From the NCBI GenBank assembly GCA_965216875.1, contig OZ244207.1, positions 3,264,001 to 3,328,000 on the forward strand: DNA of 64,000 bases. The letters run 5' to 3'. The stretch is from Rubripirellula sp. Lineage in GTDB: Bacteria; Planctomycetota; Planctomycetia; Pirellulales; Pirellulaceae. The position numbers and the translations under genes are program-made. Each line of letters opens with the position of its first letter. Position 1 is the stretch's first letter. Of the stretch, positions 18,035 to 19,038 are shown piece after piece. Below the pieces are notes generated by a model, which was given only the letters and a program-made list of their open reading frames with translations, had not been told where the DNA came from and made no database searches.

Positions 18035-18109
18035 TACGTGCGGCGGGGTTCGAACCCGCAACTCACAGGCATTTAGAGTGCCCGGCTCTACCAATTGAGC
18101 TACGCACGT
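18035..18109 (-). tRNA. tRNA with anticodon CUA (amber suppressor)
   Basis: ACGTGCG-TA-GCTC AATTGGTA GAGC-C-GGGCA CTCTAAA TGCCT-GTGAGTT-GCGGG TTCGAAC CCCGC-CGCACGT-A. Perfect 7-bp acceptor stem, canonical D and T arms, anticodon CTA at 18076-18074. CCA is not encoded. Confidence 0.92.
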
Positions 18110-18115
18110 GAGTAA

Positions 18116-18142
18116 GCCGTCGCCGTAGGAGACGGCGACGGC
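18116..18142. other. Perfect 11-bp GC-rich hairpin immediately 5' of the suppressor tRNA
   Basis: gccgtcgccgt-aggag-acggcgacggc; lies 6 nt from the tRNA 5' end; only a short U tract (TTACT) on the minus strand. Confidence 0.8.
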
Positions 18143-18155
18143 AGTTTAACTTAGC

Positions 18156-18563
18156 TTAGCTTTGAAAATACTCCGACACTTTTTCGTGCAACGCTTCGAT
18201 GCTCGCACCACACTCTTGGTCAAACGGCAAGACCGGTTCACCATTTGGAGTTCGTGCACGCAGAAAGAGTTCCACAATCTCGTGATCGATCACTCGTTTT
18301 GGATAAACGCGGTAGTGCGTGACATCGCCCCGCTGAAGTGGCCGATACCAAACGGTGTCGATGACAAAATGAGGGCAGAACTTCGGTTCAGGGCCGTTGC
18401 GGTTCTGCTCTTCCTTTCGCCACCATCGGTGCCACGCGTGAAAGTCGTACATGGTTTGCCAATACCATCGATGAAGCTCCTTTAGTTTGCAGTAAAGTGC
18501 ATAGTTGCATGGGTGATAGCCCCAACGGCTTTGAAACGATTCGGAGTGCTGTTGAGTTTGCAT
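18156..18563 (-). CDS. Hypothetical Trp/Tyr/His-rich protein in the pth2-like/suppressor-tRNA module
   Basis: FQSRWGYHPCNYALYCKLKELHRWYWQTMYDFHAWHRWWRK...; start ATG 18563, or ATG 18635 which overlaps the upstream stop; TAA stop. Confidence 0.75.
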   Translation of the reverse strand: MQTQQHSESFQSRWGYHPCNYALYCKLKELHRWYWQTMYDFHAWHRWWRKEEQNRNGPEPKFCPHFVIDTVWYRPLQRGDVTHYRVYPKRVIDHEIVELFLRARTPNGEPVLPFDQECGASIEALHEKVSEYFQS

Positions 18564-18631
18564 TGATTGTCTCTTGCTTTTGAATGAGTTGAGTTTGGTT
18601 TCGATGTCGCCCCATGGGCGCAGCGGGATCG

Positions 18632-18985
18632 TCAATGATCGGGCTGGGGCAACAGGCGGTAGCGCCTGAAGAGTCGTCGAATCGCACCGCGAACCGGTTC
18701 GGTCGCGATTGCGGTTAGCGGAACGTCGAGATCGGCGTCGAAGAAGGGCACGCAGCCAACGTCATGGAGCTGCAAATAGCGCAGCACGCAGCGAAGTTCG
18801 GTTGCATCATCAACACCCAATAAGACGAGCCGCGGATGCTCCGACGGAGGCGGCAAAGAAGTGCGTGCCATTTCAATGCACGCATGACAGGCCTGAACAG
18901 CCTGTTGGGGCGCGGAGAGATCGCGCCGGACAAAAGCATAGACATAGGTCGGTTGTGAGGGCGGTACCTAGGTGAATCCAGTCAT
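18632..18985 (-). CDS. Peptidyl-tRNA hydrolase 2 (PTH2)-like protein with in-frame TAG at codon 6 (117 aa on read-through)
   Basis: GGAG RBS, then ATG ACT GGA TTC ACC TAG GTA... = MTGFT*VPPSQPTYVYAFVRRDLSAPQQAVQACHACIE, in frame with the track ORF 18632-18871 (HPRLVLLGVDDATEL...FFDADLDVPLTAIATEP). The RxDL/QAxHA and TA motifs resemble the PTH2 fold. Confidence 0.8.
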
Positions 18986-19029
18986 CAAATGCTCCATATA
19001 GGGGATTGGAAACGTTCGCATCAATCGAG

Positions 19030-19038
19030 AGTATATCA
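19030..19038 (-). promoter_or_regulatory. Candidate extended -10 promoter for the pth2-like module
   Basis: TGaTATACT on the minus strand about 45 nt upstream of ATG 18985; TTGGGA lies 19 nt upstream of the -10 hexamer. Confidence 0.5.

Follow-up and report, generated by a model that had tools for sequence, protein, structure and literature searches.

Within a 64,000-nt stretch of the genome of Rubripirellula sp. (contig OZ244207.1, positions 3,264,001 to 3,328,000; hereafter the window), a compact cassette occupies 18035–19040 of the minus strand. It consists of a gene for a protein with the fold of type 2 peptidyl-tRNA hydrolases (Pth2), interrupted near its 5' end by an amber stop, followed by a small partner gene, a hairpin and a tRNA gene whose anticodon reads the interrupting codon. 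As developed below, the stop probably serves as a gate that is opened by the cassette's own tRNA. The interrupted frame starts with the leader ATG ACT GGA TTC ACC (MTGFT; 18971–18985, with the ATG at 18983–18985), and a Shine-Dalgarno sequence GGAG (18992–18995) is located 6 nt 5' of the leader ATG; AAAGGAG-type sites with the same spacing are found at homologous loci. Codon 6 is an in-frame TAG (18968–18970) with G as the +4 base. Beyond the TAG, the body of the PTH2-like gene (18632–18967) continues for 111 codons to a TGA at 18632–18634, and the first in-frame ATG, GTG or TTG 3' of the stop is a Met codon at 18871, which falls within helix 1 of the protein.

The partner gene ORF2 (open reading frame 2; 18156–18563) encodes a 135-aa protein rich in Trp and Arg, and is separated from the hydrolase-like gene by a spacer of 68 nt, counted from the TGA to the ATG at 18563. 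Homologues set the ORF2 start at this ATG rather than at the upstream TTG 18635. A GC hairpin with an 11-bp stem (18116–18142, −22.9 kcal/mol) lies between the ORF2 stop and the tRNA gene and ends 6 nt before the latter. At the same place, a hairpin of at least about 10 bp is present in the window and in 6/7 related loci, the sequences being unrelated. The cassette ends with an amber suppressor tRNA of 75 nt (18035–18109), which has the anticodon CUA (18074–18076) in the loop CUCUAAA and no encoded CCA. Since the interval between hairpin and tRNA leaves no space for a promoter, we infer co-transcription, with the tRNA being excised and the hairpin remaining as 3' terminus of the mRNA; leader, TAG, hydrolase-like gene, partner gene, hairpin and tRNA thus most likely form a single transcription unit. 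An initial annotation, made from the sequence alone, had claimed an intact CUA tRNA, a PTH2-like gene with TAG at codon 6, a Trp-rich ORF and a hairpin. Each of these is recovered here: the tRNA by ARAGORN and Rfam, the interrupted gene by the frame open to the TGA together with a profile and a structure model, ORF2 by its conservation (with the start moved), and the hairpin by its confirmed stem. The annotation had also listed a candidate promoter, which fares less well; a scan with the sigma-70 consensus gave 0 sites in 17900–19400, and only an extended −10-like sequence, TGATATACT (19030–19038, minus strand), can be read as a tentative, unconfirmed promoter element.

The host genome is a single contig of 8.26 Mb with 56% GC, and TAG is a normal stop in it, in agreement with the initial annotation, which had considered the host not to be recoded. 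In the window, TAG terminates 18/57 open frames of at least 200 codons, and genome-wide it terminates 1739/4359 stop-to-stop frames of at least 300 codons (about 40%); a recoded genome would instead have the stop rarely as terminator and frequently inside genes. The genome encodes two class-I release factors, both full-length, and also has a canonical Pth gene of the bacterial type. With respect to sequence quality, a contig of depth 130 from sequencing run X1, which is probably the window's own source and hence not independent, covers 17950–19108 with 0 differences. Two contigs from run X5, which belongs to another study and represents an independent, slightly diverged strain, jointly cover the same interval with 14 differences over 1159 nt, none of which is on the TAG or the anticodon. 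Sorted by region according to the codon reading, 0 differences are in ORF2, 0 in the tRNA body, 3 in the hydrolase-like gene (CGC>CGT, which is synonymous, plus two within the N-terminal tail just 3' of the TAG) and 11 in the flanks, a pattern that points to constraint on the cassette. The TAG is also covered, unchanged, by run X6. None of the listed sequencing runs that contain the stretch is recorded as RNA. Sequencing error is excluded as the source of the TAG and the anticodon, and the earlier argument that two complementary anomalies side by side are hard to explain as independent errors stands, both being kept in run X5 and left unchanged by the read check.

Homologues are absent from 60 related genomes, and a plasmid collection gave no match. 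They were found in two planctomycete metagenome-assembled genomes, 88 metagenome stretches (80 kept), 28 phage records and 30 IMG/VR contigs. A sample of 401 genomes of the phylum contains three with a match, the host genome included. The other two planctomycete matches (L135 in genome G246 and L136 in genome G305) belong to a different PTH2-like subfamily, with the motif LQAAQVVHAAGES, and have just downstream a tRNA gene for Tyr(GUA) and one called Ile(AAU), respectively, and no suppressor. Genomes of the same genus show no DNA similarity across the site, so synteny is not established. Four loci (L002, L003, L005 and L006) sit amid ordinary planctomycete genes (DUF1501, sulfatase, extracytoplasmic function sigma factor), L002 with a transposase fragment, and seven (L016, L020, L023, L028, L038, L044 and L054) have surroundings that look phage-like. 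Judged from these surroundings and the phage records, the module is mainly a phage cassette and common in giant phages. The system had been presented as a chromosomal one; this is correct insofar as the window holds a bacterial chromosomal instance, but the module is not specifically chromosomal.

For a joint analysis, 83 loci with a homologue were assembled (351 kb in total, the window's own locus included). ARAGORN identifies 74 tRNAs in these loci, 57 of which are suppressors (52 CUA, 4 UUA and 1 UCA) spread over 55 loci; 55/57 are on the strand of the hydrolase-like gene and 52/57 lie within 1 kb of it. The loci differ in where the stop is placed. A leader-type stop, which follows a leader of 2–8 codons (M..GFT-stop), is present in 32 loci without an alternative start and in 3 ambiguous ones, and in 32/35 leader-type loci an in-frame search found no ATG, GTG or TTG from the stop to strand 1. 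An internal-type stop, about 33 codons into the gene and located in the α1–β2 loop after helix 1, is present in 27 loci. The gene is free of stops in 19 loci, 10 of which retain a CUA tRNA, and its 5' end is missing from the locus in 2. Wherever both an in-frame stop and a suppressor occur, codon and anticodon match: this is the case in 44/44 loci, comprising 39 TAG–CUA, 4 TAA–UUA and 1 TGA–UCA pairs. The 30 IMG/VR contigs add 13/13 matching clear cases, 11 TAG–CUA and 2 TGA–UCA (L146 and L151), with 0 mismatches, a count that omits five ambiguous rows (L150, L158, L161, L171, and L155, the last with a TAA leader and no suppressor across 6.3 kb). In three IMG/VR contigs (L143, L144 and L148) a leader TAG and an internal TAG occur together. 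The co-occurrence in homologues that the initial annotation had asked to be scored is therefore borne out by the 44/44 loci and the 13/13 viral cases, and its proposal that the hydrolase is made only by means of the module's own tRNA gains support from a stop that is conserved, relocated and matched by the anticodon. Conservation of the stop, switching of codon together with anticodon, and the use of two stop sites would be hard to obtain without selection, and argue against decay.

In the neighbours of 9/10 stop-free loci with a suppressor (L064 left out), in-frame TAGs do not stand out against the TGA and TAA controls. Avoidance of TAG as a natural stop is weak, with 3/31 PTH2-like genes in CUA loci ending in TAG compared with 86/341 background ORFs. 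Under the standard code, ORFs cover about 0.9 of the related loci, and read-through of TAG gains no more than read-through of TGA or TAA, in a six-frame test that is nearly saturated in GC-rich DNA and weakly informative. An Rfam search of six loci in which ARAGORN had found no suppressor identified a tRNA(UUC) in L026.

The immediate surroundings of the stops differ between the two types. The 30 distinct leader contexts without exception carry a purine at +4 (30/30; G in 23 and A in 7), Thr occupies the −1 position in 15/30 and Phe the −2 position in 19/30; in most of the listed contexts the leader ATG lies behind an AGGAG-type site. Of the 18 distinct internal contexts, 14 have Pro before the stop, each time with Asp, Glu or Pro at −2. 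A U at +4 occurs in 0/30 leader and 2/18 internal contexts. According to one source, DP-stop and EP-stop sequences induce strong ssrA tagging (PMC7246954, citing Hayes et al. 2002), and release after Pro or Gly is inefficient (PMC7246954, citing Pierson et al. 2016); in the abstract of another, +4U is described as lowering read-through (PMC5289835). Based on these patterns, the stop contexts appear to be tuned to slow release, which would give the tRNA a chance, either by a +4 purine combined with a short nascent chain or by Asp, Glu or Pro followed by Pro before the stop.

Several cultured phages with a standard code carry the module. In Serratia phage BF the gene starts with ATG ACG CAC TAG (MTH-TAG) behind a good ribosome-binding site, and the single CUA tRNA is 3.3 kb away; in Ralstonia phage RsoM2USA the start is ATG TTG TAG (ML-TAG), again behind a good ribosome-binding site, and there is also one CUA tRNA. 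GenBank has no gene annotated at the PTH2-like frame in either phage. Acinetobacter phage ME3 has MT-TAG, and about 450 nt upstream its record lists a "tRNA-OTHER, anticodon CTA"; the huge phage LR756511 has MTH-TAG. In Salmonella phage Arash (L140, OQ632216.1), which has ML-TAG, the annotation divides the gene in two and names one part, of 50 aa, "peptidyl-tRNA hydrolase", and the tRNA at 4301–4372 of the locus is a tRNA-Phe in GenBank, whereas ARAGORN reads the anticodon CTA. The Xanthomonas/Stenotrophomonas jumbo phages XacN1 (L084, ORF364), Xoo-sp13 (L137, Xoo-sp13_327) and CM1 (L138) have no in-frame stop, and a further domain of about 180 aa is fused N-terminally to the PTH2-like domain; a gene annotated as glutamyl-tRNA amidotransferase is found nearby in XacN1 and Xoo-sp13, the CM1 record being unannotated. 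RaK2 has a normal start of the PTH2-like gene. In the XacN1 paper, the targets of its two CUA tRNAs are said not to have been identifiable, and in the RsoM2USA and Atu_ph07 papers many suppressor targets are assumed. RsoM2USA and XacN1 are further reported to encode another aminoacyl- or peptidyl-tRNA hydrolase.

The suppressor of the window is a canonical cloverleaf tRNA with a stop-complementary anticodon. ARAGORN places it at 18034–18109 (minus strand, anticodon CTA), and the Rfam model RF00005 matches 18035–18109 with 60.0 bits against a gathering threshold of 29 (E 5.7e-12). It is the sole CUA tRNA among the 99 tRNA genes (plus one tmRNA) of the 8.26-Mb host genome, and its best identity to any host tRNA is at most 75%. 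The label "Pyl" assigned by ARAGORN stems from the anticodon alone. The hallmarks of tRNA-Pyl are a small D loop, a 6-bp anticodon stem and a 3-nt variable loop, while the cassette tRNA fits the general model over its full length; its D arm is normal, its anticodon stem has 5 bp and its variable region 7 nt. The tRNA bodies of the module are diverse, with 47 distinct sequences, and the discriminator bases vary as well; in an alignment of 33 of them, compensatory changes are seen in 15/16 stem pairs, and the anticodon loop is conserved. That the cassette tRNA is charged and decodes UAG in vivo is indirectly supported by the codon–anticodon covariation.

Other unusual tRNA genes were noted outside the cassette. 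ARAGORN predicts tRNAs with a four-base anticodon, one ("tttc") in the host at 3442059–3442132 of contig C1, outside the window, and one ("gaaa") directly 5' of two tandem CUA tRNAs in L036 (682–758) and again in the viral contig L169; it is possible that these are frameshift-suppressor-like tRNAs travelling with the module. About 50 tRNA genes that cover most anticodons are clustered on one strand at 591000–632700 of the same host contig, also outside the window, and could represent a tRNA-array element or a prophage remnant.

The protein encoded downstream of the TAG can be assigned to the Pth2 fold with the aid of profiles and a model. A profile built from 42 homologues matches solved Pth2 chains (24bt, E 1.1e-7; 2zv3, 1.5e-6; 1rzw, 2e-4), and 4/12 database homologues carry a precomputed PF01981 label. 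An AlphaFold2 (AF2) model of the 111 post-TAG residues, which starts after the TAG and leaves the leader peptide outside, has a predicted local distance difference test score (pLDDT) of 93.1. In a Foldseek search with this model the ten best rows are all Pth2-family chains, with template modelling (TM) scores of 0.66–0.75 and E-values of 1e-5 to 2e-4. The model superposes on the archaeal Pth2 2zv3 (TM 0.74), followed by 3erj, 1rlk, 1q7s, 1wn2 and 1xty, and model and profile agree that the Pth2 α/β fold extends across the whole domain. The Lys of the GK motif and an Asp are the catalytic residues of Pth2. In the 42 sequences, an acidic residue (E/D-x-D) is retained at the Asp position, and the column of the GK-motif Lys is occupied almost without exception by Gln, in a core, AVQACHA, that does not vary. 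Because of this replacement, we refer to the protein as PTH2-fold or PTH2-like rather than as a proven Pth2. The family is large, with 2441 representatives of 50%-identity clusters at E ≤1e-10 and 4844 at E ≤1e-3. The window protein also matches two PHROG families with no assigned function, phrog_34073 and phrog_1866, each of which covers only the C-terminal or the N-terminal part; these may be fragments that result from calling the stop-interrupted gene as two genes. Residues 1–7 of the model (the post-TAG tail) and residues 38–45 lack secondary structure, and both stop sites fall in these segments, which are unstructured or modelled with lower confidence. Which residue is inserted should for this reason be of little consequence, and this argues against a special amino acid.

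The partner protein ORF2 is characterized by the motif FHxWHRWWRK..QNR.GPEP, its conserved core being an aromatic and basic helix (FHRWHRWWRK..QNR.GPEP). Besides the window's own fragment, 12 homologues are 47–66% identical to it. The AF2 model is well defined (pLDDT 92.8), and no Pfam, PHROG or NCBIfam family is matched; the fold search gave no Foldseek match at E ≤0.001 and no usable ESM Atlas match, and the best VIA-align hit, with Z 5.2, is to a designed helical bundle. RNA binding by ORF2 is a guess on our part. Each clade has its own small partner gene adjoining the hydrolase-like gene: hidden Markov models (HMMs) find the ORF2 family in 21/83 loci, c1 in 17 and c4/c7 in 21. According to hhalign, c4 and c7 are related (96%), and ORF2 and c1 are unrelated to c4/c7. 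The four partner HMMs gave no match in the three cultured-phage loci L084–L086. In L023 (4019–4789) the PTH2-like and ORF2-like parts share one 257-codon open frame behind an MSGFV-TGA leader, while in its relatives L022 and L024 they are separate genes. A different arrangement is seen in L028 (4337–5440) and likewise in L027, where an ORF2-like N-terminal domain is followed, with no stop in between, by a zinc-binding domain of cytidine/dCMP deaminases (PF00383, E 1.7e-7); the two may be genuinely fused, or two neighbouring phage genes may share a frame.

The cassette is flanked by copies of a 36-nt GC-rich repeat. The right-hand copy (17992–18027) is inverted relative to the left-hand copy (19084–19119), the arms being 92% complementary, and a repeat search located a second left-side copy (19219–19254) within a 71-nt direct repeat. 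At up to 5 mismatches the 36-mer has 3 copies in the genome, every one at this locus. A role as transposon ends was considered for the inverted repeats, and is left unsupported because BLAST finds many partial copies of 25–36 nt dispersed across the genome. Toward the tRNA end, the cassette is met by a convergent Ala-rich ORF of 165 aa on the plus strand (17475–17972), which has a weak match to Imm5 (E 0.043, below the cut-off).

Based on the cassette's architecture and the comparison of loci, the following mechanism is proposed. A ribosome would start at the ATG at 18985 and reach the UAG after five codons, where release factor 1 (RF1) would release a pentapeptide unless the charged tRNA(CUA) of the cassette decodes the stop. 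The output of full-length PTH2-fold protein would then scale with how active the suppressor is relative to RF1. This protein, probably jointly with its partner, would hydrolyse the ester bond of aminoacyl- or peptidyl-tRNA(CUA), and this would close a negative feedback loop that keeps read-through low. With low read-through, the suppressor would become tolerable for a host with about 40% TAG stops or for a standard-code phage. We assign a probability of roughly 0.6 to this explanation as a whole, that is, to a gating plus feedback cassette. The gating part, in which the full-length protein needs a cognate suppressor to decode the built-in stop, is very likely given the matched codons and anticodons. 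The second part, that the protein, if gated in this way, acts back on the ester-linked forms of the suppressor as negative feedback, is inferred with less confidence, and we place it somewhat short of even odds. More tentative still is the specific version of a "suppression governor", in which a partner-guided enzyme, whose synthesis needs its own suppressor, strips the aminoacyl or peptidyl ester from that tRNA and thereby clamps read-through at a set point.

Feedback is favoured for four reasons. Linkage between gene and tRNA persists in the 10 loci where the gene has no in-frame stop; a general hydrolase is already owned by the host and, according to their papers, by two phages; the active site is altered, with Gln replacing the GK-motif Lys; and a partner protein is always present and sometimes fused, as in L023. 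A number of observations weigh against the proposed mechanism. In 15 loci with an in-frame stop there is no suppressor within the available DNA, and the Rfam search of the ARAGORN-negative loci L006, L012, L020, L023 and L028 found none within about 4 kb, the first four of these being the cases that count here. The CUA tRNA of RsoM2USA is 13 kb from the gene. Many loci are related, so that the counts are not independent events, and TGA and TAA stops occur in few lineages only. On the protein side, the single-sequence match to Pfam PTH2 (PF01981) is weak (13.9 bits against a cut-off of 23, E 0.063, residues 16–45), the catalytic pair of Lys and Asp is incomplete owing to the Gln at the Lys position, and hydrolase activity of the PTH2-like protein is putative and unproven. 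Furthermore, nothing in the present data distinguishes negative feedback from damage control or a timer, the two alternatives considered next.

In the first alternative the gating is real, but the product would be a general peptidyl-tRNA hydrolase for damage control, made in proportion to read-through and not acting on the suppressor. Read-through of natural stops would send ribosomes into 3' ends and raise peptidyl-tRNA drop-off, which such an enzyme could relieve. The PTH2 fold and homology, the acidic residue retained at the Asp position and the location of the gene within tRNA-rich regions of jumbo phages are all consistent with this, whereas the canonical Pth of the host, the further hydrolases reported for two phages, and the loss of the GK-motif Lys speak against it, and three unrelated, tightly linked partner proteins are left unexplained. 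We consider damage control unlikely.

A second alternative, which we regard as distinctly improbable, is that the stop licenses or times the hydrolase by confining it to cells or infection stages in which the tRNA genes of the element are working, the hydrolase itself serving another purpose. Pth reverses the action of toxins that acetylate aminoacyl-tRNA, and undoing host toxins that N-acetylate aminoacyl-tRNA would be one such purpose. Large phages rich in tRNA genes often carry the module, and two in-frame stops, as in some contigs, would sharpen a threshold. Such a timer gives no reason for the neighbour to be a suppressor and not some other tRNA, nor for the three-part cassette to persist alone among ordinary planctomycete genes.

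Control by a leader peptide without read-through would require that the TAG ends a short upstream ORF, that the hydrolase is started separately at a non-canonical codon, and that the tRNA modulates ribosome traffic. Leaders of 2–8 codons with strong ribosome-binding sites could be taken to suggest this. The leader is always in frame with the gene, however, 32/35 leader loci lack an in-frame ATG, GTG or TTG up to strand 1, and the internal stop class, about 33 codons in, is inexplicable by any upstream ORF; this model is highly improbable. Less probable again is a stop that encodes a special residue, similar to pyrrolysine or selenocysteine, or a source with a reassigned code. A dedicated tRNA beside its client gene does follow the selenocysteine/pyrrolysine pattern, and the ARAGORN label points the same way, by anticodon only, but the stops are at non-conserved, unstructured sites in two places, all three stop codons are in use, and the tRNA bodies and discriminator bases are diverse with a full-length fit to the general tRNA model; reassignment conflicts with the TAG ends of about 40% of the long host frames and with an ORF cover of already about 0.9 that shows no TAG-specific gain. 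A decaying pseudogene beside a suppressor tRNA by chance, which the lack of homologues in 60 related genomes and terminal repeats reminiscent of a dead insertion might suggest, can practically be dismissed, since dozens of loci keep the stop and show it changing in step with the anticodon, the downstream frame is intact and conserved in 42 sequences with their invariant core, and the differences in run X5 indicate constraint.

A natural nonsense suppressor should do harm in a genome that relies on all three stops, yet such tRNAs recur in standard-code jumbo phages. With the cassette, these orphan suppressors gain a specific client to which they are physically linked, a hydrolase-like gene with a stop that changes along with the anticodon, and the question of how a cell or phage affords a suppressor becomes directly testable, cultured phages with the module being available. 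It also exposes a systematic annotation gap, since the gene is missing or split in the GenBank records of BF, RsoM2USA and Arash, and it provides a blueprint from nature for amber, opal or ochre suppression that regulates itself. If the tentative governor model is true, standard-code phages and bacteria could keep a UAG, UGA or UAA suppressor without poisoning termination; this would account for the orphan suppressors of jumbo phages and provide a self-limiting part for genetic-code expansion.

Compared with known systems, the closest relation at the protein level is to Pth2 (PF01981), with which the module protein shares the α/β fold (TM 0.66–0.75), full-length profile homology, the helix motif Q..HA and, ahead of the last strands, an acidic residue. 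Unlike Pth2 of archaea and eukaryotes, it scores below the Pfam cut-off and has Gln for the GK-motif Lys, and its gene is interrupted by a stop, occurs in phages and bacteria, and is invariably accompanied by a partner gene and, in most cases, by a suppressor tRNA.

With respect to regulation, the gene for release factor 2, prfB, offers an analogy. It escapes its stop by +1 frameshifting and senses its own product. Autoregulation through the early in-frame UGA of prfB is described in an abstract (PMC13245932). As for prfB, the module has an early in-frame stop in a gene for a translation factor, and synthesis would depend on termination competing with alternative decoding; a conserved early in-frame stop whose by-pass would set the product level is present in 32 leader-type and 27 internal-type loci of the 83. 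In the module, by contrast, escape would occur by cognate decoding with a dedicated tRNA, and the product, a PTH2-fold protein, is no release factor and does not itself compete at the stop. Any feedback must therefore run through the tRNA.

Suppressor tRNAs are also known from recoded phages. Phages of the crAss-like, Lak and related groups, in which TAG or TGA is reassigned, reportedly use them (Borges et al., Ivanova et al.), and a regulatory device is said to have been proposed. In both cases a phage-borne suppressor makes stop-containing genes translatable, but in the recoded phages tens to hundreds of genes are recoded, whereas the module genomes otherwise use the standard code and a single linked target is identified, which encodes the hydrolase homologue. 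The orphan suppressors of XacN1, RsoM2USA and Atu_ph07 come from the same phages or their relatives. As far as the available portions of these papers extend, they note CUA or UCA tRNAs and, separately, peptidyl-tRNA hydrolase genes, and none ties the tRNA to a stop-interrupted PTH2-like gene. A full-text literature search, the scope of which leaves out subscription journals largely and supplements wholly, likewise returned nothing that connects a suppressor tRNA with a Pth2-like gene containing a stop.

Selenocysteine and pyrrolysine insertion have in common with the module that a dedicated tRNA reads a stop in particular genes of a genome with the standard code. The module differs in that no special residue, synthetase or insertion element is evident (pylS and pylBCD were not searched for), and in that the position and identity of its stop vary. 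What the window adds is a bacterial chromosomal instance with its own partner family, an internal stop site, covariation in three ways across TAG–CUA, TAA–UUA and TGA–UCA pairs, and slow-release contexts around the stops.

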